The position numbers and the translations under genes are program-made. Of a stretch of DNA of 59,487 nt, positions 5,844 through 58,499 are shown piece by piece (the stretch's first letter is position 1; each line of letters begins with the position of its first letter). The notes below the pieces were generated by a model. It worked only from the letters and a program-made list of their open reading frames with translations. It ran no database searches and was not told the DNA's origin. This stretch comes from a virus. The stretch is from positions 1 through 59,487 of the IMG/VR virus record IMGVR_UViG_3300027896_005002; one strand, 5' to 3'.

Positions 5844-5845
5844 AT

Positions 5846-12775: not shown

Positions 12776-12783
12776 ATCTACTG

Positions 12784-16201: not shown

Positions 16202-19200
16202 TTAAACTGATTTTTTTGCTTCCGCTCTAAAATTTATTAAAGGATGAGGGATTTGCTCTGGCATAATTTGTATATCAGTAAATCCCGCCCACGTTAAATG
16301 ATCCCATAACATTTCCGGATACCACCCCCATAAATGGGGTGAAGTAATATCACCTTGACCGCCCTTATCTGTAGTATTAACTGGACAAAAGAAACAATTC
16401 AATATACCATATCTTGTTTTTTTATCTGCAGTTACAAACATCTTACATAATTCTTCAATATTTGGTACTTCAATTACAAGTTTTCCACCTGGTTTTAATA
16501 TTCGTTTCCAATTGTTAAGAACCTCGACCACCTTGTATGGATTTATATGTTCTAGTAAATGCGATGCCAAAATCTCTTCAACAGAATTTTCTGGTAAATC
16601 TAATTCATAAACATCAGCAATAATCAATGCTCGCATATCATACTTATCAACACTAATATATCCAGGAAATTCCACACCACCAGATCCTAAATTCAATTTT
16701 ATGTGTTTATTGTAACGAAGCATGTTTTTCATACCATTAACTTTAATTACATGCGTACTATATTCAGGAAATTCTTTGACAGAAAAAGTTCCTTCACCAA
16801 TATGATATATTGGAAATCGACCTTCATTTGTAAAAGTAAAAATTAAATCATTATCCGGAACTACGACCTGTTTATATCCTGCAATTTGTGCTTTAACGCA
16901 AAAATCTATATCTTCTCCTCCTCCAGGACTATATGATTCATCAAGTAATCCAATCTTATCAAAAACTTTACTTCGTATCATAACGCAGAAAAATATCATT
17001 ACATCATATCCGGCATAATTATCATACAATTGTAATGGTCCAGTGATTCCCACAGTTTCATCATTCAAAAATGGATGAACTAAAATATCTATCCAGGCAT
17101 TATGCAGCAATCCCTTATCTAAAAGAATAGTATCATTATTTAAAAGAATGATATAATCACCTACTGCAGCTTTTATTCCAATGTTTGTAGCTTTAGTAAA
17201 TCCAAGTCCGTCATCATACCAAATAAGCTTAAAAGGATGACCCAAACTATCAATATAATCTGCAGTATTATCTTTACAACCATTTGCCACAACAATTATT
17301 TCAACATCGTCAAGTTTAGTAAATTTTTTAATACTATCAAGACATGGTTTCAAACAATCTTCTAAATGATTGTATGTCGGAATGACAATTGAATATTTTG
17401 GCTTTTTCTGATGTTTACTATAAAGAATGTTTCTATTATATCTCATAGTTGAGACATTTTTTTGTTTTTTGTCAATTGTTGTCGGACTACTTGGATGATA
17501 TAATGGAAAATCATTCTTTAAACCAATAGGAACAATTGAATAACCGGCTTTTGATATTCTTAAACTAAAATCAGTATCACTTAAATATCCTATTCCAAAA
17601 TTGCAGTCAAATCCATTTATTTGATCCCAAATGTATTTAGGATACATTGCGCAACCACTATGTAATGCTAGCCCTAAAAATGGGTAATCTGCAATAAAAA
17701 TTCCTGTAGCACCTGTTAATTTATCATTTAAAAATGGTTCATATAATTTGCTAATCCATGAATCAACCTCTTGAGGCAATAAAAGAGAATCATCATCAAG
17801 TAATATCAAATAAGATCCTCTAGAAGCAATTGCAGCCGAATTAACAGCAATTGGAACCCCAACTTTTTTATGATGATCTATTAATGTTATCCTTCTTTTT
17901 AAAGATTCTAAATGTGTAATAGCAGCATTATCACAACCATTTGCAGATACAATAACTTCTTTATCAATAAGATTTGTAAATTGAAACACTCTATTTAAAC
18001 AATCAGAAATAACATCATTTGAAGCACATGTCGGAATGATAATACTAAATTTTGGTCGTCTGCGCAATACTATTAAACCATTTGAACCAATTATTTCAAA
18101 ATCCATTTCCCAATTATCATTTGTTTGCAAAAAATCCTGTACAGCAAGTTGTAGTCCTTTTCTATCTAAATTAGTTTGCACTTCATCTTCTTGACCATAT
18201 TTTGTCGTATCATGCAATAAAATATATTTTCTAACTTTATTTGCATGAAGTGTTAATTCTTGTGATAATTGTTTATAAGTGTGTAATGTGTCTATAAATA
18301 ATAAATCAGTTTCTTCTATCTCAGTTGTCAAAACGTCATGCTCAATAAATTTGAAATCAATACCATTTTCTTTAGCAACATCAATAGCTTCATGAATATT
18401 TTCACATGTATAAATGTCATATGACGTCATTTTAATAGGCTTAGCTACAAGAAATGCATATGTAGAAAATACACCACGAACACCAAATTCTGTTATACAT
18501 TCGCATCTACAAGCATATTTTCTCAATGTCGGAAATAATTTGTTAATATCACATTCATGATTCAAAGCAATATTATAAATTTTTTCTAATCTACTTGCAT
18601 ATTTATCTTCTAAAATTTTGTTGTTTCTTTGAATAATTTCATTTTTCATATCTACTTTATTAAACGTTCCATTACCTTCATGATATATCGGAAAACTGTA
18701 ATCTGTCACTCCTTCACCAAATTGTTTTGATCCATCATTAGGAACTTGAACTAATCGATAACCAATTAATTCTGCTCTAAGTGAAAAATCACCATCTTCA
18801 CCCATTCCTGGATTAAAATTTTCATCTAAAAATCCTATTTCATTTACTAATGATCGTTGAAACATACAACACCAAAAAGCAATTGATGTTCGATTTATTC
18901 CTCCACAGTCCCAGATGAATTTTATAGGACCAGTTATCCCTATGTTTGCACATTCAATAAATGGATTTTTTAATATTTCTATCCATCTATTTTTAGGTTG
19001 TTCAAGTAATATAATATCATCATTCAACAAAATAATAAAATCACCCAAAGAATTTTTTAAACCTATATTTACAGCTTTAGTATAACCTATTGGTTGTTCA
19101 AATTGTATAATTTTAGTATTTTGCAAATCGCTTCTGACATTGTCACAACCATTTGCAACAACAATTAGTTCAACATTATCCAAATCGGTGTATTTAACTA

Positions 19201-19261
19201 TACTATCATAACATGATATTAGATTATTAAAATTGCAGGTGGGGATTATAATTGAAATCAT
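16202..19261 (-). CDS. Five-domain carbohydrate-modifying enzyme: GT2 glycosyltransferase, class-I SAM methyltransferase (TylF/CmcI-like), GT2, GT2, class-I SAM methyltransferase
   Basis: Seen in sequence: three GT2 signatures, SIIIPTCNF..LIVVANGCDN..ILLNDDIIL, FSIIIPTCAS..VIVSANGCDN..LILLDDDSLL and YSIVIPTYNH..IIVVANGCKDN..ILLNNDTIL..GGGEDIDF. An internal methyltransferase-like region is CECITEFGVRGVFSTYAFL...LLFIDTLHTY. A C-terminal Methyltransf_11-like domain is LNLGSGGVEFPGYISVDKYD...ILASHLLEHI...LKPGGKLVIEV. Confidence 0.8.
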   Translation of the reverse strand: MISIIIPTCNFNNLISCYDSIVKYTDLDNVELIVVANGCDNVRSDLQNTKIIQFEQPIGYTKAVNIGLKNSLGDFIILLNDDIILLEQPKNRWIEILKNPFIECANIGITGPIKFIWDCGGINRTSIAFWCCMFQRSLVNEIGFLDENFNPGMGEDGDFSLRAELIGYRLVQVPNDGSKQFGEGVTDYSFPIYHEGNGTFNKVDMKNEIIQRNNKILEDKYASRLEKIYNIALNHECDINKLFPTLRKYACRCECITEFGVRGVFSTYAFLVAKPIKMTSYDIYTCENIHEAIDVAKENGIDFKFIEHDVLTTEIEETDLLFIDTLHTYKQLSQELTLHANKVRKYILLHDTTKYGQEDEVQTNLDRKGLQLAVQDFLQTNDNWEMDFEIIGSNGLIVLRRRPKFSIIIPTCASNDVISDCLNRVFQFTNLIDKEVIVSANGCDNAAITHLESLKRRITLIDHHKKVGVPIAVNSAAIASRGSYLILLDDDSLLLPQEVDSWISKLYEPFLNDKLTGATGIFIADYPFLGLALHSGCAMYPKYIWDQINGFDCNFGIGYLSDTDFSLRISKAGYSIVPIGLKNDFPLYHPSSPTTIDKKQKNVSTMRYNRNILYSKHQKKPKYSIVIPTYNHLEDCLKPCLDSIKKFTKLDDVEIIVVANGCKDNTADYIDSLGHPFKLIWYDDGLGFTKATNIGIKAAVGDYIILLNNDTILLDKGLLHNAWIDILVHPFLNDETVGITGPLQLYDNYAGYDVMIFFCVMIRSKVFDKIGLLDESYSPGGGEDIDFCVKAQIAGYKQVVVPDNDLIFTFTNEGRFPIYHIGEGTFSVKEFPEYSTHVIKVNGMKNMLRYNKHIKLNLGSGGVEFPGYISVDKYDMRALIIADVYELDLPENSVEEILASHLLEHINPYKVVEVLNNWKRILKPGGKLVIEVPNIEELCKMFVTADKKTRYGILNCFFCPVNTTDKGGQGDITSPHLWGWYPEMLWDHLTWAGFTDIQIMPEQIPHPLINFRAEAKKSV

Positions 19262-19353: not shown

Positions 19354-20226
19354 TTATCTTGTAACCAAAATCTGAGATACACCTCTTGGGTTCCAAATAC
19401 CAATCCCAATTTGTTCGAAGATACTCCAGCCGATCAGGCGGCTGTCAGGATCATCAGCTGGAAGAACAGTGATGTCGATACGTTGAGGCATAATTCCTAA
19501 GAATTTTTCCTCTGTGCATACATAAACTGTTCCAATAGGTACGATACGTGATACAATGATTTCAGCACCCCAAAGCATTGCCATAAGACCAGTAGCCAGC
19601 AAGCTTTTCTGAGTGACTGGATCGAGTTGATCACGACCCCATTTTCTGATGTCACTATAGTCACGAGCATTCATGAACATGCGAGCAACTCGCAAGTCAT
19701 GTTTTTCAACTTCTGCCATAGCATCAGCGAGAGAGTCACGATCGAGAGAACCAGCAGCGTTCGTTACAGCATTGAAAGCAACGCCAGTTGTCGGATCGAT
19801 CTGCGTTAGAGCAACATCAAAGGCAGCAAATCCAAGTTCATCTTCAGCAGCCTGAATTTCCTGTTTTGCTTTGTCCTGAGCACGGTCAATCAGATTATAA
19901 CGTCTTTCCTTTACCTGTGTGAATGGAATCTTGGGATTTGAACCAAGTTCGAACAACGGTATAAGAATACGTTTTCCTTTAACGATCGTTTCTGGTGTTT
20001 GACCTTCTTCAGAGATTACGATAGCCGGAACATTGATGTCCTTATCGTAATAAGGAAGTGCGCCTTGAGGAAGAGGATCAACTACGATTGCTCTACGAAA
20101 AACGCCTTCGTAGTCAAGTCTTTCACGCAGAGGGTTTTGCATCGAAGCAGCAAGTTTCATTTTACCTTCTGCTGTTGAAAGGAGCTTATTAATAACAGCT
20201 TCTTTTTGTGCAGGATTGAGTTTCAT
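19354..20226 (-). CDS. Putative major capsid protein (HK97-fold size class, 290 aa)
   Basis: Inference from position: it is the last gene of the terminase-portal-scaffold block. It has a strong AAGGAGA Shine-Dalgarno, GC content markedly higher than its surroundings, and the strong terminator follows immediately. I did not verify a capsid-fold motif. Confidence 0.5.
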   Translation of the reverse strand: MKLNPAQKEAVINKLLSTAEGKMKLAASMQNPLRERLDYEGVFRRAIVVDPLPQGALPYYDKDINVPAIVISEEGQTPETIVKGKRILIPLFELGSNPKIPFTQVKERRYNLIDRAQDKAKQEIQAAEDELGFAAFDVALTQIDPTTGVAFNAVTNAAGSLDRDSLADAMAEVEKHDLRVARMFMNARDYSDIRKWGRDQLDPVTQKSLLATGLMAMLWGAEIIVSRIVPIGTVYVCTEEKFLGIMPQRIDITVLPADDPDSRLIGWSIFEQIGIGIWNPRGVSQILVTR

Positions 20227-30358: not shown

Positions 30359-31630
30359 TTAGTTTAAATTCCGAATTGCTTCTTTATGATAACAATTTTT
30401 TTCACCACAATCACAAACTAATTGACTAGCAAATTTACTAACCTTATATTTTTCATCAACAATATATGCTGATCCAATTTTAACAATAGTTTCTGGCACA
30501 TAAACAAATCTTAAATTCTTATCCATGGCTTTCTTAAGTAATAAAATATTAACTGCTGTTCTTAATTTTTTTAATCTTGGATTTTTTTGCAATTGAACTT
30601 CAGCACGTTCAAGCTCTCGTCTAATTGTTGATCGTGGTATTCTTTGACCTTTACTTTCAAATTCATTTGAAATTTCACCTATACTCATTGGTTTACCTTC
30701 AACAGTTAAACCATATGTCATTTTAATCAATTGTTCTCTTAATGGATCACCTAATTCACTAATTGCTTTTAAAACTTCATCTGATGTTCTAGCTTTAATA
30801 ACTTGTTGTTCAGGTGTATCATAAAATGGACTTTCAGCGGGTAAATCTTCAGGTGGTATATCTGTAGATATCTGTTCTGGACCTATTACTTCATGCAATG
30901 TTCTAGATTTTTCATCGGCATCACTAACTTCAGATTCTAATGAGATAGCTTCACTAGTAAGCAGATTTGAAATTTCACCTGGTGTCACAGTAATCTTTAA
31001 GTTAGGATCTGCATTAATATCTCTTGCCATCTGTTCAAGATTTGGATATCGATCATCTGGATGATTATGTATATATTTTTGAATTATTCTAAGTTTTTTT
31101 CTATCAGTAGGCTCCATTGTTACTGTCCGTCTAAATACTTTACGAACTTCACTTTTTAAATGATTATTTAATGTTATTTTTAAATAATTAAATAACCCTG
31201 GATTATTAGGATCAGCTCTTCCCAATGTATCAACAAATATCAATTGAGCCATTTGTTTTATATCTTCTAAATCTTCACGAGATGGATACCTCGAACCAAT
31301 AACACGTTTAATTGCAGCACCTATCATTGGCATAAAATTATCCTGCAATTTTTCAAACTCTGCTTGAGATCCCGTTGTTTGAAAAGTCTTAAGTGAATTT
31401 TGTACTTGCGGTAATGTCATTTTAAAATTCTTAAAATCTTCATCATCACCATCTTTTAATTCCCTAAATTTGTCACTAGGTTTTGCTGTTAAAGTTCTTC
31501 TAGAACCAGGATGTTTTTTCAAATATACTCTTTGCTCATCTAAAGTTAATTCATCCCAATCGCGAGAGCATTTTACAACATTTGCTATTTTACTATTTAA
31601 TAACCTTTCTAATATCAAAACCTTAAACAT
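30359..31630 (-). CDS. Sigma-70-family RNA polymerase sigma factor with an N-terminal extension and a C-terminal Cys/His tail
   Basis: Seen in sequence: a region-2-like segment EDLEDIKQMAQLIFVDTLGRADPNNPGLFNYLKITLNNHLKSEVRKVFRR, and a region-4 helix-turn-helix LREQLIKMTYGLTVEGKPMSIGEISNEFESKGQRIPRSTIRRELERAEVQLQK. AAGGAG Shine-Dalgarno 8 nt before the ATG at 31630. Confidence 0.6.
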   Translation of the reverse strand: MFKVLILERLLNSKIANVVKCSRDWDELTLDEQRVYLKKHPGSRRTLTAKPSDKFRELKDGDDEDFKNFKMTLPQVQNSLKTFQTTGSQAEFEKLQDNFMPMIGAAIKRVIGSRYPSREDLEDIKQMAQLIFVDTLGRADPNNPGLFNYLKITLNNHLKSEVRKVFRRTVTMEPTDRKKLRIIQKYIHNHPDDRYPNLEQMARDINADPNLKITVTPGEISNLLTSEAISLESEVSDADEKSRTLHEVIGPEQISTDIPPEDLPAESPFYDTPEQQVIKARTSDEVLKAISELGDPLREQLIKMTYGLTVEGKPMSIGEISNEFESKGQRIPRSTIRRELERAEVQLQKNPRLKKLRTAVNILLLKKAMDKNLRFVYVPETIVKIGSAYIVDEKYKVSKFASQLVCDCGEKNCYHKEAIRNLN

Positions 31631-33200: not shown

Positions 33201-35240
33201 CTAATCTTTTTTGGATTTTTTGTGGAACTTAAATTCTATAGGAGTACCATCAAGAGAAAACATTCGTTTACAACGCGGAAATTTCGAACATCCACCAAAT
33301 TGCTTACCAGATTTTTTGCCTGTTCTAATAATAATCGGTGATCCACATTTATCACAAACAACACCTGTAAGATATTCTGCCGGCTTTTTCTCTACTATTA
33401 AAGGTTGATTATTTGTACCAATTTTAAAGATCGCTTTACACGGTTTATCTTTATTTGTATAACCTGCGCAACCATAAAAATAACCATATTTACTAAATCG
33501 CTTAACTAATTTATTTTTACCACAAGTTGGACATATTATATCTGTTTCCTCATATTTTTTAGTATCATCTTTTCTAACATTATTCAATCTTTTCTTTAAT
33601 TCAATAAAGAAATCATCAACTACTTTATACCATATAACATCACCAGAAACTATTGCATCTAATCTGTCCTCTACTCTTGCAGTATAATTCAAGTTCATCA
33701 ATTCTGGAAATGATTGTAATAAATACCTTGCAACTTTTTTTCCTAATTCTGTAGGCACAAAAGCTTTACCATTCTTTTCAATATAAAATCTCGCCAATAA
33801 TGTTGATACGATCGTTGCATAGGTCGACGGTCTACCAATTCCTTGTTCTTCTAATGTTTTAACTAATGATGCAGTATTATATGCAGCTGGAGGTTTTGTA
33901 AAATGTTGCTTGCTATCAACAACTGTTAATTTTACAATTTCATCTTCTTGAACTTGAGGTAATAATTCATCTTTTGAATCACTATACGGCCAATATTTTA
34001 AAAAACCATCAAATACTAATGTTTGACCATTAGCAACAAATATATGTTTTTCATTATCTGATTCAACTTCAACTTTTGTTACGTCAAATTCTGCATCAGA
34101 CATTTGACAGGAAACAAATCTATAATAAATCGCTTCATACAATTTATATTCATCATCAGGTATACTTTGCCTAACTTGACTTAAAGTAAATTCTAAATGT
34201 GCAGGTCGAATACCTTCATGAGCTTCCTGTGCAGATATATTTTTTGATTTAAATATTCGTGGACTTTCAGATAAATATTTTTGTCCCTCTTTATCTAAAA
34301 TAAATTGTCTGACTGCACTTAAAGCTTCAGAACTAATATTTACAGAATCTGTTCTATGATAAGTAATTAATCCTGTAGAATCATGACCAACAATTTGAAA
34401 ACCTTCATATAACCTTTGAGCATTTTTCATTGTTCTATCACCATCCCAACCAAAAGATGATGAACAAAATTGCTGTAAAGAAGCTGTATTAAACAATGGT
34501 GATGGTGATCGTTTTTTCTTCGTTTTTGTTGTAGATTTAATCGACCACTTTTTGACATCTCTAATCAATTCTAAAGCAGCATCCGTCTGCTGCTTATTAA
34601 CTAATTTTTCATCGCTTTTATAATTTGCAGAAAATATATTATTTCTTGGCGTTGAAAATTTACCTGTTATATCCCAATATTCTTCTGGTTTAAAAGCATC
34701 AATTTCATCTTGTCTTTCAACAATCAATTTTAACCCAATTGATTGAACTCTACCAGCAGATGTTCCTTTACAAACATATTTCCATAAAATCGGTGATACT
34801 TTGAATCCTACTAAAAAATCTAATACGGATCTTGCCTGTTGAGCATTATATAAATGTTCATCAAGTGTCGTAGGATTTTGAATCGCTCGTAATATTGCTG
34901 ATTTAGTTATTTCCTGAAATCTTGCGCGTTTAATAGGACATTTTTTTCCTACAACAAATTTTGCAATATGCATTCCAATAGCAGTACCTTCTCTGTCGTC
35001 ATCAGTTGCTATTATAACTTCATCGCATTCTTTTGCTAATGCTCTTATTTCATTAATGACTTGCTTTTTCTTAGGTATTGCAATATAATTTGGTGTATAA
35101 TTATTTTCAATATCTATTGCAGTAACTTTTGGTTCAATTTGATAACAGTGACCCACACTGGCTTTTACCCTATATTCAGGCCCCAAAAACGATTGAATCA
35201 CTCTTACTTTACCTGGAGATTCCACAATAAATAATTTCAT
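33201..35240 (-). CDS. topA: DNA topoisomerase I (type IA) with two C-terminal C4 zinc-ribbon motifs
   Basis: Seen in sequence: a Toprim N-terminus MKLFIVESPGKVRVIQ...IIATDDDREGTAIG, the active-site tyrosine context GLITYHRTDS, and C-terminal CPTCGKNKLVKR...GCAGY and CDKCGSPIIIRTGKKSGKQFGGCSKFPRCK. Confidence 0.9.
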   Translation of the reverse strand: MKLFIVESPGKVRVIQSFLGPEYRVKASVGHCYQIEPKVTAIDIENNYTPNYIAIPKKKQVINEIRALAKECDEVIIATDDDREGTAIGMHIAKFVVGKKCPIKRARFQEITKSAILRAIQNPTTLDEHLYNAQQARSVLDFLVGFKVSPILWKYVCKGTSAGRVQSIGLKLIVERQDEIDAFKPEEYWDITGKFSTPRNNIFSANYKSDEKLVNKQQTDAALELIRDVKKWSIKSTTKTKKKRSPSPLFNTASLQQFCSSSFGWDGDRTMKNAQRLYEGFQIVGHDSTGLITYHRTDSVNISSEALSAVRQFILDKEGQKYLSESPRIFKSKNISAQEAHEGIRPAHLEFTLSQVRQSIPDDEYKLYEAIYYRFVSCQMSDAEFDVTKVEVESDNEKHIFVANGQTLVFDGFLKYWPYSDSKDELLPQVQEDEIVKLTVVDSKQHFTKPPAAYNTASLVKTLEEQGIGRPSTYATIVSTLLARFYIEKNGKAFVPTELGKKVARYLLQSFPELMNLNYTARVEDRLDAIVSGDVIWYKVVDDFFIELKKRLNNVRKDDTKKYEETDIICPTCGKNKLVKRFSKYGYFYGCAGYTNKDKPCKAIFKIGTNNQPLIVEKKPAEYLTGVVCDKCGSPIIIRTGKKSGKQFGGCSKFPRCKRMFSLDGTPIEFKFHKKSKKD

Positions 35241-35512
35241 GTTTGTACCTTTATCACTTTTAGCGGCAATTTTGAATCATCAGGCCATTCCATTTGATAA
35301 CCACAAAACTTCCACCAATTATCACCAAGTTTGCGAATATGGTCCTTCCATTTTTTACTTCGTTCATATTCACGTTCAAACTGCCAACTTGGATTATTCA
35401 AAAAAATTGGAGATGGTGGATTCAATTTTTTCCATGTTTCATACTCATTTTTACAAAACATTATCCATTCTTGTTCTAATTCAAAACTAATATCATCTGA
35501 ATTTTCATTCAT
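35237..35512 (-). CDS. Hypothetical Trp-rich protein (91 aa)
   Basis: ORF with 4-nt overlaps on both sides. Confidence 0.4.
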   Translation of the reverse strand: MNENSDDISFELEQEWIMFCKNEYETWKKLNPPSPIFLNNPSWQFEREYERSKKWKDHIRKLGDNWWKFCGYQMEWPDDSKLPLKVIKVQT

Positions 35513-35733
35513 TTAACTTTACTTGCAAGATAATCAACTAAATCATCAAGTTTGTGAAAATTAGCAATATCTTCATCGGGAATTTCAAGACTAAAAGCTT
35601 CTTCCGTAGCAATTATAAGATTTACACAATCTAAAGAATCAATGTTAAAGGCAGTGGCATCATCTACTATGTCGATACAAAGTTCGTCAGCAATAATTTG
35701 TTTTAATTTGTCTTTAATAGTATTTCTATCCAT
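35509..35733 (-). CDS. acpP: Acyl carrier protein
   Basis: Seen in sequence: a 74-aa acidic protein with the phosphopantetheine-attachment motif FNIDSLDCVNLIIATEEAF (DSLD); GAAAGGA Shine-Dalgarno upstream. Confidence 0.8.
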   Translation of the reverse strand: MDRNTIKDKLKQIIADELCIDIVDDATAFNIDSLDCVNLIIATEEAFSLEIPDEDIANFHKLDDLVDYLASKVK

Positions 35734-35745
35734 AAATTATCCTTT

Positions 35746-38313
35746 CTAATCTTCATCTTTTGATTCAATAACAGCATCATCAACATCTGATTCTTGAATA
35801 CCCTCAAGCATTTTTTCATCAGTAACTACACCGATATATGCTACAGCAGCAATTGAATCATCCTTTAGTTTTTGAATTTTACAACCTTGTGTATTTCGAC
35901 CAAGTTTATGAATTTGATTTATTCTTAATCTTATTAATATCCCCTTTTGTGTAATGACAATAAATTGTTCATCTTCATTTTCAATAACATTTGCAGATAT
36001 AATCTTTCCTGTAACAATATTAACATTCATGCAAATTATACCACAACCACCTCGATTCTGTGTTCTAAATTTTGTTAATACAGTCTTTTTAGAATATCCA
36101 CGCTCAGTAACAACTATTAAACAACTTGATTCAATTTTTATCAAATTTGAAGAAACAATACAATCATTATCTGATAATTTAATTCCTCTAATACCAATAC
36201 TATGTTTTCCTGCAGCTCTAACAGAACTACTTGGAAATCGAATTGACATTCCTCCTCTTGTAACTAATAATAAGTCAACATCATGATCCAATAGTTTTAC
36301 ATCTACTAATGAATCATCATTTTCCAAACCAATTATCATTGTACCCGTAGATCGAGGTCTTTGTAATTTCTCAGCTTTTAATTTCTTAACCTGACCATTT
36401 TTGGTAACAATAATAAAATGCTTACCTGTTAAATCTGATATTGGAATAACCCTAACAACTTTTTCATTTTCATTTAATTTTAAAATATTTAATATTGAAC
36501 TACCGGCTGCAGTTCTTCCCAAAGAGGGTATGTCATAAGCATTCATCTTATAACATAAGCCTTTATTTGTAAAAACCAATGTATAACTTCTAGTTGATAG
36601 TTGAAAAATACTTTCTACATAATCTTCATCCTTAATATCAACACCAATTAATCCTCTTCCTTTAACATTTTGCAATTTATATTCAGTTACTGGTGTTCGT
36701 TTAACTAATCCATTATGAGTAACTGTGATAACAACATCTTCCTCTTGTATTTCCTCAATATCATCAATATTTTTTTCATTCTCATCAATATCTAAAATCT
36801 TCGTCTTTCTTTCATCTCCAAACCGTGTTTTAATATCAATCAATTCATCTTTTATTTGCTTAATTATCAAATCTTCAGATTCTAAAAATTCGGTCAACTT
36901 TTTGATAATTTTGGCAATTTCTATATGGTCATTAACAATTGTATCGCGTTCAAATTGAGCTAATTTCTGAATCCTCAAATCTAGAATTGCTTTGATTTGA
37001 ATATCATCCAATCCATATTTTCTTAATTTTGTATATGTTTCCTCAGTCGAAGAAGATGTTTTAACATCTATCAATATTTGATCCAAATTATCAAAGACAA
37101 TTAAAAATCCTTCTAAAATATGACATCGTTCTTTGTTCTTTCTTAATTCAAATTCGGCGCGTCTAATAACAATATCTTTTCTATGAATTAAAAAATGTTT
37201 AAATATTTCCTTCAATCCAACCATCCTTGGCATGTTATTTACTAATGCTCTCATATAAATAGCATGCTTACATTGCAATTCTGTGCGTCGATATAAAGTA
37301 TTCAAAACCATTGAAGCTTGAACACCTTTTCGTAATTCAATTACAATCCTAGTTCCTGTTTTATCAGATTCATCTCGCAGATCAGCTATACCATCAATAC
37401 CTTCTAACTTTTCTTCCTTACTCTGATATAACTCCGCAATACGAGTAATTAAATTTTCTCTATCTAATTGATATGGTAATTCCGTAATGATAATCCTATG
37501 TTTTTTGCCTTTTTCATCAATTTCTGCTTTTGCTCTTAAAGTAACAGAACCTCGACCAGTTTCATAAATTTGAGCAAGATTTGTTTTAAACATATAAGCA
37601 CCAGATGGAAAATCTGGACCTTTAATATACTGCATCAATTCCTGAACAGTAATATCTTCATTAGCAATATAAGCAATTAAAGCATCAACTACTTCAGTTA
37701 AATTATGTGGTGGAGTAGATGTAGCCATACCGACTGCAATTCCAAGTGATCCATTTATCAAAAATAGCGGCACTTTCGTTGGCAATACTTTGGGTTCCTG
37801 TAACGTACCATCATAATTTGGCATAAAATCCACAGTATCTTTATCAAGATCTGCCAATATTACATCATCCGAGATTTTTGCCAATTTCATTTCTGTATAT
37901 CGATGAGCAGCTGGAGGATCTTCTAACGATCCAAAATTTCCTTGACCAAAAATTAACGGATATCTTGTAGTAAAAGGTTGTACTAATCTAACAGCAGCTC
38001 CATAACTTTCACCGTGAGGATGATATTTGGCCATTACAGTGCCAACAACATTTGCAGATTTTTTTGTAACTTTATTATTGGTTAAACCCATTTCATGCAT
38101 TGTATATAAAATTCTACGAGCAACAGGTTTTAACCCATCACAAATATCTGGTAATGCTCTTTCCTTAATAACACTTAAAGCATAAGCCAAATACATCTTT
38201 GGTAAAATTTCGTGCGCTTTAACGTCAAATTGACCAATTTCTATGCCAATATTAACGTCAACTTCGTCGCCTTCATCAATATCATCTAATTCATCAGACA
38301 TTCTTACCACCAT
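35746..38313 (-). CDS. gyrA: DNA gyrase subunit A (type IIA topoisomerase A subunit, with C-terminal beta-pinwheel region)
   Basis: Seen in sequence: AYALSVIKERALPDICDGLKPVARRILYTMHE; KYHPHGESYGAAVRLVQ; the active-site tyrosine context AAHRYTEMKL; 855 aa. An alternative ATG start at 38301 (MSDELDD) is possible. Confidence 0.9.
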   Translation of the reverse strand: MVVRMSDELDDIDEGDEVDVNIGIEIGQFDVKAHEILPKMYLAYALSVIKERALPDICDGLKPVARRILYTMHEMGLTNNKVTKKSANVVGTVMAKYHPHGESYGAAVRLVQPFTTRYPLIFGQGNFGSLEDPPAAHRYTEMKLAKISDDVILADLDKDTVDFMPNYDGTLQEPKVLPTKVPLFLINGSLGIAVGMATSTPPHNLTEVVDALIAYIANEDITVQELMQYIKGPDFPSGAYMFKTNLAQIYETGRGSVTLRAKAEIDEKGKKHRIIITELPYQLDRENLITRIAELYQSKEEKLEGIDGIADLRDESDKTGTRIVIELRKGVQASMVLNTLYRRTELQCKHAIYMRALVNNMPRMVGLKEIFKHFLIHRKDIVIRRAEFELRKNKERCHILEGFLIVFDNLDQILIDVKTSSSTEETYTKLRKYGLDDIQIKAILDLRIQKLAQFERDTIVNDHIEIAKIIKKLTEFLESEDLIIKQIKDELIDIKTRFGDERKTKILDIDENEKNIDDIEEIQEEDVVITVTHNGLVKRTPVTEYKLQNVKGRGLIGVDIKDEDYVESIFQLSTRSYTLVFTNKGLCYKMNAYDIPSLGRTAAGSSILNILKLNENEKVVRVIPISDLTGKHFIIVTKNGQVKKLKAEKLQRPRSTGTMIIGLENDDSLVDVKLLDHDVDLLLVTRGGMSIRFPSSSVRAAGKHSIGIRGIKLSDNDCIVSSNLIKIESSCLIVVTERGYSKKTVLTKFRTQNRGGCGIICMNVNIVTGKIISANVIENEDEQFIVITQKGILIRLRINQIHKLGRNTQGCKIQKLKDDSIAAVAYIGVVTDEKMLEGIQESDVDDAVIESKDED

Positions 38314-38603
38314 CTTTTCATATGTTCACGAAGCTTTTTAAAATCATTTGTCATCATTGCATCATTAGCAAGTTCTATCAATTCATCTTGAAATATTCCA
38401 TAAGCAAAATTATATATTCTTGCTTTCTCATTAGCATTTATAGTTTTTTCAATATAATAAGCACATTTATTTGCACTATGAGCATGTGCACCGTTTCCAA
38501 AATTTTTTAATTTCCTAATTACTTCTTCTGCTTCATTTTTTTGATCTAATATCTCATTAAATTTTCGTTCTAACATATTAAGCATCAATTTCAGATTCAT
38601 CAA
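38304..38603 (-). CDS. Hypothetical 99-aa protein encoded between gyrB and gyrA
   Basis: ORF overlapping both gyrase genes (26 nt with gyrB, 10 nt with gyrA); helical and charged. Confidence 0.4.
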   Translation of the reverse strand: MMNLKLMLNMLERKFNEILDQKNEAEEVIRKLKNFGNGAHAHSANKCAYYIEKTINANEKARIYNFAYGIFQDELIELANDAMMTNDFKKLREHMKRWW

Positions 38604-40491
38604 TTGTTAAAGCATTTGTTGTAATATATTCTTTTCGAGGACCAACGTCATCACTCATTAATATTTTGAAAATATTATCAGTTTCTATGTCATCAGTAAT
38701 AATAACTCTTGCGAGTCTTCGCGTTTTAGGATCCATTGTTGTCACAGCTAATTGTTCAGGATTCATTTCACCTAAACCTTTAAACCGTGTAATAATTGCG
38801 CTTTCTGCATTCTTAGCATTTTTCTTCCATGCTGTCAATTCTTCATCATCATTTACATATTGATCATGTTTACCTACTCTTATTTTATATAATGGAGGCT
38901 GTGCTAAATAAATATGACCTTCTGTTATCAATGGTTTCATATATCGATAAAATAATGTTAATAATAATGATCGAATATGAGCGCCATCAACATCGGCATC
39001 CGTCATAATAATAACTTTTGAATATCGTAATTTTGATAGATCATTTGTTTCAATGTTATATCCAATAGAAGCAATTAATGATTGAATTTCTTTATTATCC
39101 AATATTTTCGTTAATACATTCTTTTCAACATTTAATACTTTACCTTTTAATGATAATACTGCTTGAAAATCCCGATCTCTACCTTGTTTTGCAGACCCGG
39201 CAGCACTTTCTCCTTCAACAATCAATAATTCACATTTTTCAGGATTTTTGCATGAACAATCAGTCAATTTTCCAGGTAATGAAAATGATGACAAAATATT
39301 TTTTCGTCGAACAGTATCCCTTGCTTTTCTAGCCTCTTCAGCTGCAATACATGCCTGAGCAATTTTACCAGCAATTGCCATTGCTGTATCATTAAATTCT
39401 GCAAAATAATCATTTATTGCTTTTAAAACTTGATCGTAGACTATTTTTTTGATTTCTGGATTACCTAATGTAGATTTTGTTTGACCTTCAAATTCAGGAT
39501 TAGGTAATTTTATGGAGATGATAGCTGTTAGACCTTCAAGAATATCTCTTGGTGTTGGTCTAATATCTAATCCTTTATATAATTTTTTCTTTTCTGAGTA
39601 AATAAGAATAGCATCTAATAATGCAGATTTAAATCCAGATAAATGTGATCCACCATCTCGAGTATTTACATTATTTGCAAATGATAAAACTTCTTCTGAA
39701 TATGTTTTATTATATTGAAATGCTATTTCAATTCTTATTTTTTCAATTTGCTCATCCAAATAAATAATTGGACTAATTACTTCTTTGTCATTATTTAAAT
39801 TTTCAATAAATGCAGTTATTCCACCATCAGAGAAAAATTCAACTTTTTCATTAGTTTTTTCATCTAAAAGAATTATTTTAACGCCTTTATTCAAATACGC
39901 CAATTGTTGTAATCGATTATAAAGAATTTTGTATTGAAATTCAATAGTTTGAAAAATACTATGATCAGGTTTAAACTTAATTTCAGTTCCAGTTAACTTA
40001 GAACTTTGGCCTTTAATAAGAGGACCTGTAATTACCCCCTTTTTATATGATTGTGACCATGAAAATCCATCTCTACAAACTGTTAAAAACAAATCTTCCG
40101 ATAAAAAATTAACTGCTGATACACCCACACCATGTAAACCTGATGATGTCTTATATGAATCATTATCAAATTTTCCACCTGAACGAAATGTCGTCATTAC
40201 CATTTCTACAGCAGGTTTATTCGTATCCGGATGGATATCAACAGGTATTCCTCGACCATTATCTTTTACAGTTACAAAACCATCTTTATGAATGACACAA
40301 GTTATTTCATCACCATAACCATTTGTAATTTCATCAATACAATTATCTACGACTTCATATACTAAATGATGTAATCCAAAAGATCCTGTGTCACCAATAT
40401 ACATTGCAGGTCTTAATCTGCAATGAGTTCTATCATCCATTTGTTGGATAGATCTTGCATCATATTTTTTGTCTACGACATCATTATTCAT
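38578..40491 (-). CDS. gyrB: DNA gyrase subunit B (GHKL ATPase plus Toprim)
   Basis: Seen in sequence: GLHHLVYEVVDNCIDE; LHGVGVSAVN; a Toprim segment LLIVEGESAAGSAKQGRDRDFQAVLSLKGKVLNVEK; PLYK; 637 aa (the short Gram-positive type length). Confidence 0.9.
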   Translation of the reverse strand: MNNDVVDKKYDARSIQQMDDRTHCRLRPAMYIGDTGSFGLHHLVYEVVDNCIDEITNGYGDEITCVIHKDGFVTVKDNGRGIPVDIHPDTNKPAVEMVMTTFRSGGKFDNDSYKTSSGLHGVGVSAVNFLSEDLFLTVCRDGFSWSQSYKKGVITGPLIKGQSSKLTGTEIKFKPDHSIFQTIEFQYKILYNRLQQLAYLNKGVKIILLDEKTNEKVEFFSDGGITAFIENLNNDKEVISPIIYLDEQIEKIRIEIAFQYNKTYSEEVLSFANNVNTRDGGSHLSGFKSALLDAILIYSEKKKLYKGLDIRPTPRDILEGLTAIISIKLPNPEFEGQTKSTLGNPEIKKIVYDQVLKAINDYFAEFNDTAMAIAGKIAQACIAAEEARKARDTVRRKNILSSFSLPGKLTDCSCKNPEKCELLIVEGESAAGSAKQGRDRDFQAVLSLKGKVLNVEKNVLTKILDNKEIQSLIASIGYNIETNDLSKLRYSKVIIMTDADVDGAHIRSLLLTLFYRYMKPLITEGHIYLAQPPLYKIRVGKHDQYVNDDEELTAWKKNAKNAESAIITRFKGLGEMNPEQLAVTTMDPKTRRLARVIITDDIETDNIFKILMSDDVGPRKEYITTNALTIDESEIDA

Positions 40492-40555: not shown

Positions 40556-40822
40556 TTATTGAAGATCATTGACTGATGATACCGATTTATTATGATTTGC
40601 AGCTTTTTTTCCAGCTTTTAAATTTTTTTCAGTCATTGATTTTTTAAAGCGAGAACTTGAGGATGAAAATCCATCACCTTTTAAAATAAATCCCGATCCA
40701 CCTGTAATTAATCTGTGTGTACTGTCTTTACATTTATTACACTTTATTTCTGGAGTTTCATTTACACCATGCATTTCTTCTTGTATATTACCACAATTAT
40801 TGCATTCATATTCATATATCAT
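40556..40822 (-). CDS. FmdB-family zinc-ribbon protein (paralog of 31643..32041)
   Basis: Seen in sequence: MIYEYECNNCGNIQEE...CNKCKDS. Confidence 0.55.
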   Translation of the reverse strand: MIYEYECNNCGNIQEEMHGVNETPEIKCNKCKDSTHRLITGGSGFILKGDGFSSSSSRFKKSMTEKNLKAGKKAANHNKSVSSVNDLQ

Positions 40823-41390: not shown

Positions 41391-42006
41391 TTAACACAGT
41401 TTTAATTTCAGAAGCAATTTGGTTTATATATCCTTCTCGTTCATTCATTGGCATATATGTAAAAATATAACTCGTATGAAATGCACTAACAATAGGTTTA
41501 TTAAGTTTCAATCTTTTTATTGCAACTTTTGCTGCTTTACCAAATGTAACTATTAATTTTATATTTTGCATTAATGCAATTCTTTTTGCTAAATACGACA
41601 AACAATTATCAATTTCATCTATTGTTGGTCGTCGATATTCTGGAGGACTACAACATACTGCATTAAAATGTTGTATATCTTCCCATCCTACATTTGCACG
41701 ACCGTAAATCTCCATCAATAATTTTCCAACTCTTGCAATATTTTGTATCCTATTGTCATATATATCGTGAAATTGTTCTAATTTTTCAATGTAAACTTCA
41801 CCTTTATGTGGCTTATATACACCCGGTGCTTCAGCAATAGAACATATTCTAGCATTAAGATAATGATTAAAATCAAATCCTAAAACTGGACAATTATGAA
41901 TTCTTTTTTGTCGTAAAGTAAACAATTCCTCACATTTATTACAATTAAAGATTTCTTTTTCAAGATCATTTATTCTTTGCTTTAATAATGAATGTTTCAT
42001 TCCCAA
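41383..42006 (-). CDS. Uracil-DNA glycosylase family-4-like protein (Fe-S type; catalytic competence uncertain)
   Basis: Seen in sequence: an N-terminal CNKCEEL pair, motif-A-like SIAEAPGVY (cf. GEAPG), FNAVCCSPP, and motif-B-like SAFHTSYI. Confidence 0.55.
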   Translation of the reverse strand: MGMKHSLLKQRINDLEKEIFNCNKCEELFTLRQKRIHNCPVLGFDFNHYLNARICSIAEAPGVYKPHKGEVYIEKLEQFHDIYDNRIQNIARVGKLLMEIYGRANVGWEDIQHFNAVCCSPPEYRRPTIDEIDNCLSYLAKRIALMQNIKLIVTFGKAAKVAIKRLKLNKPIVSAFHTSYIFTYMPMNEREGYINQIASEIKTVLNA

Positions 42007-42191
42007 ACACTTGCAGCATCAGCTAAGCCATCCGGTCGAGTATCATCATTTTCATCTTCAACCGGTTGTGTATATTTACATTTAGGATAATTCGTACAAC
42101 CTAAAAATCGTTTATTTTCTCTATTTTTTCGTTTAATTAATCTACCATCACATCTAGGACAGTCCCAAATTGTAATATCATCATCTTTCAT
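41997..42191 (-). CDS. Stand-alone topoisomerase-type C4 zinc-finger protein (64 aa) with acidic tail
   Basis: Seen in sequence: WDCPRCDGRLIKRKNRENKRFLGCTNYPKCKYTQP matches the CPxCG..L..R.gR.G.FlGCsnYPkCkyT zinc-finger pattern, of which topA in this window carries two copies. Confidence 0.6.
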   Translation of the reverse strand: MKDDDITIWDCPRCDGRLIKRKNRENKRFLGCTNYPKCKYTQPVEDENDDTRPDGLADAASVWE

Positions 42192-43258
42192 AAAAATATC
42201 GGCCTTTTTTGAATATTACTATTAAGAAACACATTTATATGATCATATCTGTCACAATATTTACACTGCTCAAAGCATTTACTACAATTCAAAAATTTGT
42301 TAACAATATCATAATATTTTTTACTACTATAAATATTACTTAACTTACTTTCTTTAACATTGCCAATTACAAAATCTAATTGTTGTTTGTCCATTGAAAA
42401 AACAGGTTCATACATATAACAACAAGGAAATACATTACCATCTGCAGCTATTAGTCCAAATAATTGAGGAGCAAAACAAGATTTATAATCTATATAATAA
42501 TTTGAAACAAAATGTTTTCTAACGTTACTTTTATCAATTTCTCCGCCATAAATCATTAAATCTTCGAAAATTTTAAGTATTTTAGTTTCTATTGTTTTAG
42601 ACTTTTCATCATTTCTATTTTTTTGTAAATGTGAAATTATTTCTCTCGATAACCATAAGAAAATAGGTACTTGAAAATTGTTTATCCTTAAAAACGATAT
42701 TAGATTTTTAGAAAAATTGTCTATGTTGTACTCATGAATTGTTATATTAATTCTAGTTTCACAATGTGACATTTTATTTTTTTCAAGTAATATTCTTAAA
42801 TTTTCTGTCCATTCATCAAATAAATCAACTCCACGAGTTTCTGCATAATTTTCTCTAGTAAAACCATCAGATGAAAAACGGATCCAATTACAATTTCTTG
42901 ATAATGATGTCCAATCAATATTTGGTTTTCCTAATCCAGAAGTTATTATACCAATATAGTAACCATCAGCTTTTAACTTTTCAATAATTTTTTCAATATC
43001 TTTATGTAATAACGGTTCACCTCCTGAAAAAACTATAGTTTGTAAAGTAGGAAAATTTTTCAATTCATTTAAAACATTTTGTTCTAAAACATCAGTATTA
43101 AGTTTTGTCTTTACGGGCCATTTCCAATGCTCACAACCTTTACATTTACAAACACAAAAATCAGTTAAATTAATTTGCAATGTAACCAAACACTGTTCAG
43201 GAGATGATTTAACTTTATATGCAAATGGTAATAATTTCTCATCAACAGAAAATTTCAT
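42188..43258 (-). CDS. Radical SAM enzyme with C-terminal SPASM/twitch auxiliary Fe-S domain
   Basis: Seen in sequence: LTDFCVCKCKGCEHW contains CxxxCxxC; IVFSGGEPLL; a C-terminal CFAPQLFGLIAADGNVFPCC...FVIGNVKESKLSNIYSS...CSKCFEQCKYCD fits the SPASM cysteine pattern. Confidence 0.8.
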   Translation of the reverse strand: MKFSVDEKLLPFAYKVKSSPEQCLVTLQINLTDFCVCKCKGCEHWKWPVKTKLNTDVLEQNVLNELKNFPTLQTIVFSGGEPLLHKDIEKIIEKLKADGYYIGIITSGLGKPNIDWTSLSRNCNWIRFSSDGFTRENYAETRGVDLFDEWTENLRILLEKNKMSHCETRINITIHEYNIDNFSKNLISFLRINNFQVPIFLWLSREIISHLQKNRNDEKSKTIETKILKIFEDLMIYGGEIDKSNVRKHFVSNYYIDYKSCFAPQLFGLIAADGNVFPCCYMYEPVFSMDKQQLDFVIGNVKESKLSNIYSSKKYYDIVNKFLNCSKCFEQCKYCDRYDHINVFLNSNIQKRPIFL

Positions 43259-56588: not shown

Positions 56589-58499
56589 TTAAAATAATCC
56601 TTCGCTAGCTAACCTTGCAACAAAAGCTTCTGTATTATCATAAGTTTCTACATTGCCATTTTTATCAACAATATACTCTTCAAGTACAGGTTGACCATTT
56701 TCTTCTTTATAATTAGTCTTTATTGTAATATAACCATCACCTTGCTTTACAGTGTCAACTGTTGAATAACTTTTGTTTGATTCAGCAAAAGTTACCTCAG
56801 GCATTGTAATAACTTCATCAAAAATATCATCTACTACTTGAGCAATCCTTTCATTAACTGATGATTTCTTTTTCTTCTTCTTGTCTTCTTTATAATGAGG
56901 TTCTGGCTTCTTCGTTAATTTTCCACCAGGACCCCATTTTTCACCAGGTTTCTTTTTTGACATCCACCAACTATTATGAACAAAAACACCTGCATCTAAA
57001 GCAAAATTATGATACTTATCAACCGTAAAATCATAGACATCTTCTTTAACATCAAGTACTTTTGCACTAACAACTTTATGATTAATTTTTAATTGGTACT
57101 TTTTCTCTGTTTCAAAAATAAGATTATCTAAAGTACCAAAAGTTTTGATAGCAGTACAAAAATCAGGATTGTTAATTGAATGTCTATGTTCATCCCATGT
57201 ATTTTCATTAATTGGTAAATTAGCTTCAATAATTCTTTTTGTTACTTTCATTGATTTTGCTTTTACCATATTACCAAATTTAAATTTTTCATCTACATTA
57301 ATTTTAATTTGATCAACTGTACCAAAGTGTAAAATTGCTGTAGAAAAAGATGGATTACTTTTGTATCCCATATGCTCAAACCATGTATTTTCATTAATTG
57401 ACAACCCATAATCCATTATTCTTTTTGCTATCCTCAAAATTTTTGATTTTGTAATCGTGCCATCAATATTTCTTTCTCTAATAGCTTCAATTGCTTCTTC
57501 AGATTCATTATATTTTCCTAAAGCAATTTTTCCAGCTTCAGCACCTAACATTCCATTTTCCTTACAGTTTTTAATTTGCTCACCGCGATGCTTTTGCCAC
57601 AATAATTTCATATTACGTCTTCCAATAATAGACGCCATTATTCGACCTTCTTCAGACTTATTATATTCAATTAGATATTTTGCACAATCAGCTCTACGAT
57701 GAAGTATTGAATGTTCACTACCAGTAAGTAATTTGATATTATTTGGATGGTTATTATCTTTATTAAAATCGTCATGATGATTAATAAAACCTCTTGTCCA
57801 TTCTTTACCAAACTTCATCTTAGCAACAAGTCTATGAACAAAATGTTTTTTTCCATCATTCGACCAACATCGTTTATAACCGTCACAAAAACTTCCTTCA
57901 TATCTATCAAAATAAATCGGCATCAAAGATTCATTACATTGCAAATTCTGAGCTTCTTTATAAGAACCATCAATTAACATAAACTTATGATTTTTAGTAC
58001 ATCTAATTGATTGTCCATTATCAAGAATAATCTCAATAAGCTCAGCATTATTAATTGTTTTATGAAAATTAAATGCTTTTCCTACAACAATTTTATTTTG
58101 ATCAACATCAAAAGAATAAACAAATGTTTCTTTATCTATACCAAATTCATCAACTAATTGTTTTATTGATAACACTCTTCCATCCAACAGTGGTACTTTA
58201 GTATCACCAGTAAAACACAATGCCCAAGGATTTGTAATATTCTTGTGCTTTTTCATTGCACGTGTTGTTCCTCCCCATCCTGGAGGAGATACAGCTACTT
58301 TTTCGTTTGCCAATACTTCACTGGCAACACGATCAATATTTTCATTCATACTACCTCTCCTTAAACGATTCTTAAATTGTTCCTCGATTAGTTCTTTACC
58401 ATCACTCGGCAAATCAACAAATCTCTTCTCTAACTGATCATGTCCATTTTCGGCATAATCAGTTCGTTCACGTAATGGCTGTAACTTCTCGTCTAACAT
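56589..58499 (-). CDS. Intein-containing precursor of a ~221-aa Lys/Trp-rich protein of unknown function (94-aa N-extein, 415-aa intein, 127-aa C-extein)
   Basis: Seen in sequence: the extein junctions are ...NITNPWAL | CFTGDTKVPLLDG (intein block A, Cys1) and ...VYDFTVDKYHNFALDAGVFVHN | SWWMSKK (terminal His-Asn, Ser+1). Block B TxxH is IRCTKNHKFML. Confidence 0.75.
   Translation of the reverse strand: MLDEKLQPLRERTDYAENGHDQLEKRFVDLPSDGKELIEEQFKNRLRRGSMNENIDRVASEVLANEKVAVSPPGWGGTTRAMKKHKNITNPWALCFTGDTKVPLLDGRVLSIKQLVDEFGIDKETFVYSFDVDQNKIVVGKAFNFHKTINNAELIEIILDNGQSIRCTKNHKFMLIDGSYKEAQNLQCNESLMPIYFDRYEGSFCDGYKRCWSNDGKKHFVHRLVAKMKFGKEWTRGFINHHDDFNKDNNHPNNIKLLTGSEHSILHRRADCAKYLIEYNKSEEGRIMASIIGRRNMKLLWQKHRGEQIKNCKENGMLGAEAGKIALGKYNESEEAIEAIRERNIDGTITKSKILRIAKRIMDYGLSINENTWFEHMGYKSNPSFSTAILHFGTVDQIKINVDEKFKFGNMVKAKSMKVTKRIIEANLPINENTWDEHRHSINNPDFCTAIKTFGTLDNLIFETEKKYQLKINHKVVSAKVLDVKEDVYDFTVDKYHNFALDAGVFVHNSWWMSKKKPGEKWGPGGKLTKKPEPHYKEDKKKKKKSSVNERIAQVVDDIFDEVITMPEVTFAESNKSYSTVDTVKQGDGYITIKTNYKEENGQPVLEEYIVDKNGNVETYDNTEAFVARLASEGLF
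56973..58217 (-). mobile_element. Intein (Hint domain split by an HNH homing-endonuclease domain and two copies of a ~45-aa helical repeat)
   Basis: Seen in sequence: I mapped the boundaries codon by codon (Cys1 codon at 58215-58217; terminal Asn codon at 56973-56975). The HNH-like region is HFVHRLVAKMKFGKEWTRGFINHHDDFNKDNNHPNNIKLLTGSEHSILHRR. The internal duplicates are NENTWFEHMGYKSNPSFSTAILHFGTVDQI and NENTWDEHRHSINNPDFCTAIKTFGTLDNL. Confidence 0.75.

Follow-up and report, generated by a model that had tools for sequence, protein, structure and literature searches.

A gyrase and topoisomerase I gene string in a clade of very large phages as a putative supercoiling module

Introduction

Can a phage with a very large genome bring its own control of DNA supercoiling into the cell? 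The question is raised by a 59,487-nt stretch of viral DNA (IMG/VR record IMGVR_UViG_3300027896_005002, positions 1 to 59,487, hereafter the window), in which genes for both subunits of DNA gyrase, gyrB and gyrA, and for a type IA topoisomerase I, topA, lie in one string at 33201-40491 on the minus strand. The topoisomerase II of T4-type phages has no GyrA wrapping domain and is not known to supercoil DNA. That enzyme (gp39/gp52/gp60) is closest to topoisomerase IV, and in the jumbo-phage survey of Iyer et al. 2021 only the T4-like, topoisomerase IV-related two-subunit enzyme and a topoisomerase I of the tyrosine-recombinase type were reported, the former thought to be selected by large genome size (PMC7824862). 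The window also encodes a phage type IIA enzyme, but one of full-length gyrase type with a complete six-bladed C-terminal domain, and its topoisomerase I is a type IA TopA rather than a tyrosine-recombinase-type enzyme.

We consider it likely that this block is a phage-borne supercoiling module made up of an intact A2B2-type gyrase and a type IA topoisomerase I, with which the phage probably sets the level of supercoiling in its giant genome for itself. An original prediction, made from the letters of the window without database searches, had proposed such a toolkit, and had extended it to a small open reading frame (ORF) between gyrB and gyrA and to a carrier protein. The evidence below carries the first proposal and leads away from the second.

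A complete gyrase and topoisomerase I

The ORF coordinates and lengths originally given for 33201-40491 were reproduced exactly, all on the minus strand, and the description of GyrA and GyrB as full-length bacterial-type subunits agrees with their Pfam domains, NCBIfam scores and catalytic motifs, all of which are present. The gyrB gene (38578-40491, minus strand) encodes 637 amino acids (aa) with the Pfam domains HATPase_c, DNA_gyraseB, Toprim and GyrB_C. Its product exceeds GyrB subfamily cut-offs of NCBIfam (843 vs 796 and 836 vs 740) and scores much lower against ParE models (678 and 538). Alignment with E. coli GyrB recovered E42/N46/D73, the GLHGVG lid, QTK, EGESA and DADVDG, within the stretches YEVVDNCIDE, KDNGRGIP, GLHGVG, GQTKS, EGESA and TDADVDG of the GHKL ATPase, transducer and Toprim regions. 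The protein is intact, with no intein; it differs from E. coli GyrB in having EGESA for EGDSA and no E. coli-type insertion.

The gyrA gene (35746-38313, minus strand) encodes 855 aa, probably 851, with a DNA_topoisoIV domain (E = 8.5e-136) and six DNA_gyraseA_C blades that make up a six-bladed C-terminal beta-pinwheel (six PF03989 stretches, E = 1.3e-53). The catalytic tyrosine lies in AAHRYTE, aligned with bacterial AAMRYTE, and an acidic C-terminal tail is present, as on E. coli GyrA. The protein passes both NCBIfam gyrA equivalog cut-offs (TIGR01063, 899.1 vs 877; NF004043, 918.3 vs 902) and falls well under those of the ParC models (parC_Gpos, 554 vs 813; parC_Gneg, 483 vs 629). In domain architecture and catalytic residues the enzyme thus matches bacterial DNA gyrase (GyrA2GyrB2; E. 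coli, 6rks, 7z9c), from which it differs in being phage-encoded, in its separate clade and GyrA-box, both described below, and in having its genes in one string with topA.

The topA gene (33201-35240, minus strand) encodes 679 aa with the Pfam domains Toprim, Topoisom_bac and two Zn_ribbon_Top1, the latter being two C4 zinc ribbons at the C-terminal end. It is a bona fide TopA, as had been claimed: it scores above the NCBIfam topA_bact equivalog cut-off (TIGR01051, 635.7 vs 456.4) and far under those of the topB (213 vs 516) and reverse-gyrase (280 vs 472) models, and its type IA motifs are intact in alignment with E. coli TopA, namely E9 (IVESPGK), ATDDDREG, the catalytic tyrosine in GLITYHRTDS, and EAHEGIRP. 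Bacterial TopA (E. coli 4rul, T. maritima 2gai) shares the Toprim residues (E, DxDxE), the GLITYHRTDS tyrosine and the Top1-type ribbons; the window protein differs in being short, with only the two ribbons, and in belonging to a separate environmental clade.

Six ORFs run from gyrB to topA, and all of their junctions are 4-nt overlaps or gaps of at most 12 nt. Besides the three enzyme genes these are the small ORF that occupies the entire gyrB-gyrA gap (38304-38603), the carrier-protein gene (35509-35733), which follows gyrA after a gap of 12 nt, and a 91-aa ORF (35237-35512) that shares 4 nt (ATGA) with each of its neighbours, the carrier-protein gene and topA, all on the minus strand.

Phage origin and genome context

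The block is phage-encoded, as proposed, with phage genes on both sides, uniform codon usage and the same synteny in at least five independent assemblies. All gene-like ORFs of at least 100 aa in the window lie on the minus strand, and its GC content is about 0.27-0.33 over most of its length; the source is a huge tailed phage with about 30% GC. An HK97-type capsid gene is located at 19354-20226, genes for prohead protease, portal and terminase (TerL) were identified by PHROG matches at 22.9-30.4 kb, and tail-fibre-like genes occupy 43.8-54 kb; fibre proteins of collagen, PKD or NHL type are also encoded in the window. Between 3 and 14 kb separate the gyrase-topA block from the genes for capsid, protease, portal and terminase. 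GC at third codon positions (GC3) of gyrB, gyrA and topA is 12-16%, as in the structural genes, and relative synonymous codon usage (RSCU) is correlated at r = 0.97. Scans of the window for tRNA, rRNA and Rfam families gave no match. Several of the syntenic relatives are classed as viral by IMG/VR, and the genome is large, as had been expected, since contigs of 415,903 bp and 416,029 bp encode the exact GyrA and the exact TopA, respectively, which sets the genome at 416 kb or more; the 416-kb contig is k141_2484546 of ENA ERZ27247850.

Conservation among relatives

Phylogenetic comparison, which had been suggested as a check, placed GyrA and TopA in separate environmental clades with at most 48% identity to cellular enzymes. 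The window GyrA has 21 close relatives with 61-67% identity; several of them contain inteins, and their contigs reach 336 kb. A more distant sister pair has 53% identity, and cellular GyrA 45-48%. The 22 sequences of the clade, the window GyrA included, are monophyletic in all 100 bootstraps of a neighbour-joining tree, with identities of 61-96% inside the clade and of 42-48% to the best cellular matches. For TopA, environmental relatives number about 88, with identities of 46-68% and contigs that reach 424 kb; a gyrase-linked subclade of 26 is among them (44 of 50 bootstraps), and identity to cellular TopA is at most 47%. Both enzymes belong to deep, phage-specific lineages that are old in these phages; with identities of only 42-48% to cellular enzymes, the genes were not recently captured from a host.

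Gene order is conserved along with sequence. Synteny with the window extends over about 25 kb on at least five independent contigs, the longest of 336 kb, in the order radical-SAM, UDG, two small ORFs, an 88-aa Zn_ribbon_8 gene, gyrB, gyrA and topA, followed by further ORFs, Zn_ribbon_8, a sigma-like gene, TerL and portal. The order zinc-ribbon gene, gyrB, gyrA, topA is kept throughout a phage clade with genomes of about 260-416 kb. More distant TopA-bearing contigs of huge phages (202-424 kb) have no gyrase adjoining topA, and the gyrase-linked subclade of 26 does not include their TopAs. The sister GyrA group has another neighbourhood (RecA, RuvC and others), yet the zinc-ribbon gene, gyrB and gyrA are retained there, and on one contig of this group topA is not next after gyrA. 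The conserved core therefore consists of these three genes, which a huge-phage TopA joined in a subclade.

Within IMG/VR, single-protein scans with GyrA and with the small ORF between gyrB and gyrA gave almost no match. This is a limit of the pattern approach, since the clade was recovered when TerL and TopA were used instead. The closest GenBank TerL, from a 485-kb uncultured phage, has 27% identity.

Proposed role and alternatives

Enzyme families and genome architecture suggest how such a module might work. The ORFs from gyrB to topA would be co-transcribed. Their tight packing speaks for the module, as does a terminator prediction over 32-42 kb, which gave no terminator-like site in a scan that we otherwise judged uninformative. 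The gyrase would remove positive supercoils ahead of replisomes and RNA polymerases and introduce negative supercoils, and TopA would remove excess negative supercoils behind RNA polymerase, as in the twin-domain model. The phage would in this way set the topology of a very long, co-directionally transcribed genome without host enzymes.

Several observations weigh against this reading. GyrB stays under the strict equivalog cut-off of NCBIfam TIGR01059 (808 vs 882), and the trees are neighbour-joining trees built from top database hits only. A promoter scan was uninformative in such AT-rich DNA (84 sites found vs 66 +/- 10 expected). The module lies among structural and packaging genes, not replication genes, which leaves room for a role tied to packaging or in the virion. 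Finally, negative supercoiling is not assured, because the GyrA-box is changed across the whole clade.

The canonical GyrA-box, Q(R/K)RGG(R/K)G in the first blade, separates GyrA from ParC, and work by Kramlinger and Hiasa in 2006 is said to have found it to be required for wrapping and supercoiling in the gyrases studied. At the aligned position the window GyrA has QNVKGRG. All 22 members of the clade have QN[VI][KR]G[KR]G, two of them with K for N (QK[VI]RG[KR]G), and the sister pair has QRSKGRG; bacteria in the same alignment have Q[KR]RGG[KR]G. The altered box is conserved and retains the glutamine, two glycines and two basic residues, which argues for function.

It is nonetheless conceivable, though we think it rather unlikely, that the type II enzyme is mainly a topoisomerase IV-like decatenase, an unknotting enzyme or a relaxase, not a negatively supercoiling gyrase. 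It could, for example, resolve replicated 400-kb genomes before packaging, with TopA assisting on recombination or replication intermediates rather than balancing gyrase. The non-canonical box of the whole clade would fit such an enzyme, as would the position of the module within the packaging and structural block, where TerL and the portal gene are 3 kb away, and the precedent of the known T4-type phage enzymes, which are closest to topoisomerase IV and not known to supercoil. Against it stand the retained six-bladed C-terminal domain and acidic tail, the conserved residues of the altered box, and the gyrA and ParC scores given above; the conserved pairing with a relaxing TopA also suits an enzyme that introduces negative supercoils.

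A second possibility starts from the zinc-ribbon gene directly upstream of gyrB (40556-40822, minus strand). This FmdB-type gene encodes 88 aa with a Zn_ribbon_8 domain (Pfam PF09723, E = 8.2e-10). Every relative in the two GyrA clades has an orthologue (41-56% identity) immediately upstream of gyrB, also where the rest of the neighbourhood is different; in 76 other viral contigs, Zn_ribbon_8 proteins of greater distance show no link to gyrase. If any small protein does partner the gyrase, the 88-aa protein is a better candidate than the small ORF between gyrB and gyrA. It might, though we likewise give this only a small chance, form with gyrB, gyrA and the remodelled GyrA-box a phage-specific gyrase unit, to which topA was added in one subclade. 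The 88-aa partner would then be a functional analogue, not a homologue, of YacG-type regulators, and the unit, lying as it does in the packaging and structural block, may prepare or condense the ~400-kb genome for packaging or travel in the virion as reported for phage G; the helical protein encoded between gyrB and gyrA could be an extra, strain-specific modulator.

Less probable again is a role in host takeover, in which the enzymes would target the host chromosome, for example through a global shift in supercoiling that reprograms transcription, and not on phage DNA. The phage also encodes a sigma-70-family protein and DnaJ, which suggests extensive host manipulation, but nothing in the topoisomerase proteins points to host targeting: they are generic DNA enzymes that would act on the most abundant DNA, and their genes lie with late-type structural genes rather than in an early-gene array. 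A supercoiling module acting on the phage's own genome is our preferred reading.

Small proteins of the block

The original prediction had described a 99-aa ORF at 38304-38603 that overlaps both gyrB and gyrA, and had suggested that its product might modulate gyrase. The overlap with both neighbours exists only in the longest ORF models. A length of 99 aa rests on a TTG start; gene callers chose M7 (ATG at 38585), giving 93 aa (P0121), and an ATG at 38576, one base past the gyrB stop, would give 90 aa, so that 90-93 aa is more likely than 99 aa. The start of gyrA is probably M5 (ATG at 38301), two bases past the stop of the small ORF, giving the 851-aa form that is also the database form (P0001).

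The small ORF is a real gene that belongs to a rare, all-helical family. An exhaustive search of 1.8 billion representative proteins yielded 16 homologues, as did a profile search; the family shares the motifs GNGAHAHTANKC.YY... and, at the C-terminus, ..M.RWW, and an AlphaFold2 (AF2) model has five helices with a pLDDT of 90.6. We found no match in Pfam, NCBIfam, PHROGs, PADLOC or GenBank phages, and none in a scan of genome contigs with the family. Fold searches with the model returned generic helical bundles and nothing specific.

That this protein is a dedicated modulator of phage or host gyrase is very unlikely in our view. The gene is wedged between gyrB and gyrA and possibly translationally coupled to both, and it encodes a conserved protein with a confident helical fold, whose closest family members carry N-terminal Cys-rich extensions. 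However, no homologue is present in five independent gyrase-bearing relatives, in which gyrB abuts gyrA, and seven other family members, mostly in long arrays of small same-strand ORFs, have no gyrase gene in the 5-16 kb of flanking sequence examined. Because gyrase-bearing relatives lack the ORF and its other family members were never near gyrase, the modulator idea is unsupported. The domain and family searches likewise gave no match to YacG, GyrI, CcdB, ParE or pentapeptide proteins, and there was no resemblance to Qnr/MfpA in sequence or fold. Known gyrase regulators (YacG, GyrI/SbmC, CcdB and the prophage protein Gip; bioRxiv 10.1101/2021.01.28.428610) are small, as are the 99-aa and 88-aa proteins, and YacG is a zinc-finger protein as the 88-aa protein is a zinc protein, but neither window protein has sequence similarity to any of them, nor does the 99-aa protein have fold similarity. 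Conserved linkage to gyrB belongs to the 88-aa ORF only.

The carrier protein (35509-35733, minus strand; 74 aa) had been counted as part of the topology toolkit, but none of the relatives has it, and an accessory insertion is the better reading. It matches Pfam PP-binding (PF00550, 31.6 bits vs a cut-off of 20.8) and PHROG 5934 'acyl carrier protein', has the serine of a DSL phosphopantetheine-attachment motif (...FNIDSLDCVNLI...), and resembles rare acyl carrier proteins of jumbo phages such as Motura, RP13 and fHe-Yen9-04. It stays under all AcpP equivalog cut-offs (best NCBIfam acyl carrier protein model, 50 vs 71), and no phosphopantetheinyl transferase, ketosynthase or acyltransferase domain was found in the scanned ORFs of the window. 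The 91-aa ORF between the carrier-protein gene and topA, which the original list of ORFs lacked, had no match in Pfam, NCBIfam, PHROGs or PADLOC, and its single-sequence AF2 model (pLDDT 65) was uninformative and was not used. Most likely, all three small genes (for the 99-aa protein, the carrier protein and the 91-aa protein) are lineage-specific accessory cargo at insertion-prone junctions, unrelated to the module.

Also missing from that list was a free-standing Top1-type C4 zinc-ribbon ORF of 64 aa (41997-42191, minus strand; PF01396, 52.7 bits vs a cut-off of 32), placed between the radical-SAM and UDG genes. No homologue was found in the relatives L002-L006 or L023-L030, and its ribbon type may link it to the topology theme.

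Relatives differ in the distance between gyrA and topA, which ranges from 0 to 1.5 kb. In one of them (L030:8803-9990, plus strand) the junction holds an ORF of 395 aa whose product has repeated C2H2-like zinc fingers and resembles a nuclease in its C-terminal half, and which may be a free-standing homing endonuclease and which shows that the junction accepts insertions.

Known systems and significance

Phage gyrases as such are already known. Listeria phage LPJP1 (MZ422438) and Bacillus phage G (PMC12484599) also have adjacent gyrB and gyrA genes, in phages of 220-500 kb, and the A and B subunits of phage G branch outside bacterial gyrases and were found in particles (PMC12484599). Their gyrase proteins differ from those of the window in being only 29-33% identical to them and in showing no coupling to a zinc-ribbon gene or topA. 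The GyrA C-terminal domain is detectable in LPJP1, with 25% identity over that domain, and a search for TopA in LPJP1 gave no match. The novelty here is therefore modest and lies in the conserved coupling to topA, which, together with the altered GyrA-box, appears undescribed in the literature searched. A 'Microcystis phage MaAM05' was considered as a precedent for a phage TopA, but it is not secure, its topA region having psbU, mtnP and a tRNA.

Among 50,697 GenBank phage records, the GyrA C-terminal domain was detectable in 43, nearly all of which look host-contaminated, with LPJP1 as the clear exception. Examples of such records are the multi-contig 'Listeria phage LM 4-11-1' and 'Staphylococcus phage SA 1306 Kay' and short 'Bacteriophage sp.' faecal contigs. 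Since gyrA, gyrB and topA are classic cellular housekeeping genes, since an annotation of 'DNA gyrase subunit A' marks a contig as contaminating prokaryotic DNA in some pipelines (PMC13037316) and since many 'phage' records with such genes look contaminated, we weighed, and can practically dismiss, a block of host chromosomal DNA flanking a prophage, which the original prediction had raised against itself, or mis-joined to phage DNA in a chimeric assembly, because phage genes flank it on both sides on the same strand, its GC3 and codon usage equal those of the structural genes, its exact proteins occur on ~416-kb contigs, the identical arrangement recurs in at least five independent assemblies from different samples, no cellular homologue exceeds 48% identity, and the window has no tRNA, rRNA or Rfam match.

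A whole clade of phages of about 260-416 kb has the genes for both arms of the bacterial supercoiling homeostat, gyrase and topoisomerase I, as one old, conserved string, which supports the view that a phage genome of very large size requires topology control of its own. The changed GyrA-box offers a natural variant for probing how DNA wrapping is coupled to supercoiling. More speculatively, the phage enzymes would escape anti-gyrase measures that the phage itself or its competitors aim at the host enzyme. There is also a warning for virus discovery, as one large pipeline discards contigs annotated 'DNA gyrase subunit A' as prokaryotic (PMC13037316), and filters of this kind would remove this phage lineage.

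Mobile elements in relatives and neighbouring genes

Inteins were detected in six GyrA relatives (P0003, P0010, P0012, P0013, P0017 and P0022) and in one TopA relative (P0218). From such inteins, and from split ones, in the gyrA and gyrB genes of relatives it is evident that these genes have long resided in a phage gene pool rich in mobile elements. In two relatives (L003:7583-9990 and L005:6484-9991) gyrB is naturally split by an intein: the N-half ends in ...VVEGD|CFKADTLV, after which comes an extension of about 115 aa, and the C-half opens with about 46 aa that end in ...GGFVVHN|SAGGSAK. Joining the halves restores the Toprim motif EGDSAGG, at the site where the intact window GyrB has EGE. 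A group I intron was considered for these split genes and rejected, as there was no Rfam match and the sequence is that of a split intein (Cys1 ... HN|S). In L005 and L006 a free-standing 343-aa ORF lies between the gyrB halves, as in the 'fractured gene' split inteins of Dassa et al. 2009 (PMC2677866). The N-half there ends in VVEGD|CFKGDTL... and the C-half has ...VVHN|SAGGS, so that the two may be spliced; gyrB was not among the host genes of that study (PMC2677866), and the window, with its intact gyrB, does not have this layout. In L003 an element of the IscB/omega-RNA type, in a huge phage, is inserted between the radical-SAM and UDG genes: a HEARO RNA (4638-4847, plus strand; RF02033, 91 bits) adjoins a 426-aa ORF with an RRXRR domain (IscB-like) at 4703-5983.

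Several neighbouring genes of the window, all on the minus strand, are of interest in their own right. The sigma-70-family gene (30359-31630; 423 aa, TIGR02937, 46.6 bits) lies immediately upstream of TerL and is kept in relatives, where the orthologue of L005 has Sigma70_r4; the gene suggests that the host is a bacterium. Some relatives were binned in 'Nitrosarchaeum', 'Nanoarchaeia' or 'Pacearchaeota' metagenome-assembled genomes, which is probably mis-binning. The DnaJ co-chaperone gene (11789-12787) is full-length, with a J domain, a CXXCXGXG zinc domain and a C-terminal domain. The radical-SAM/SPASM gene (42188-43258) is found upstream of the gyrase module in all relatives.

An ORF of at least 1950 aa (3-5852), which runs off the left end of the window, has 10 collagen triple-helix repeat stretches and CHB_HEX_C_1 and is probably a giant fibre protein; it accounts for the higher GC and strong GC skew of the first 5 kb. 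The 1019-aa ORF at 16202-19261 has three GT2 glycosyltransferase stretches and a methyltransferase domain, and the 636-aa ORF at 56589-58499 contains an intein (Intein_splicing and an HNH_3 endonuclease) in a protein that weakly matches helicase PHROGs.

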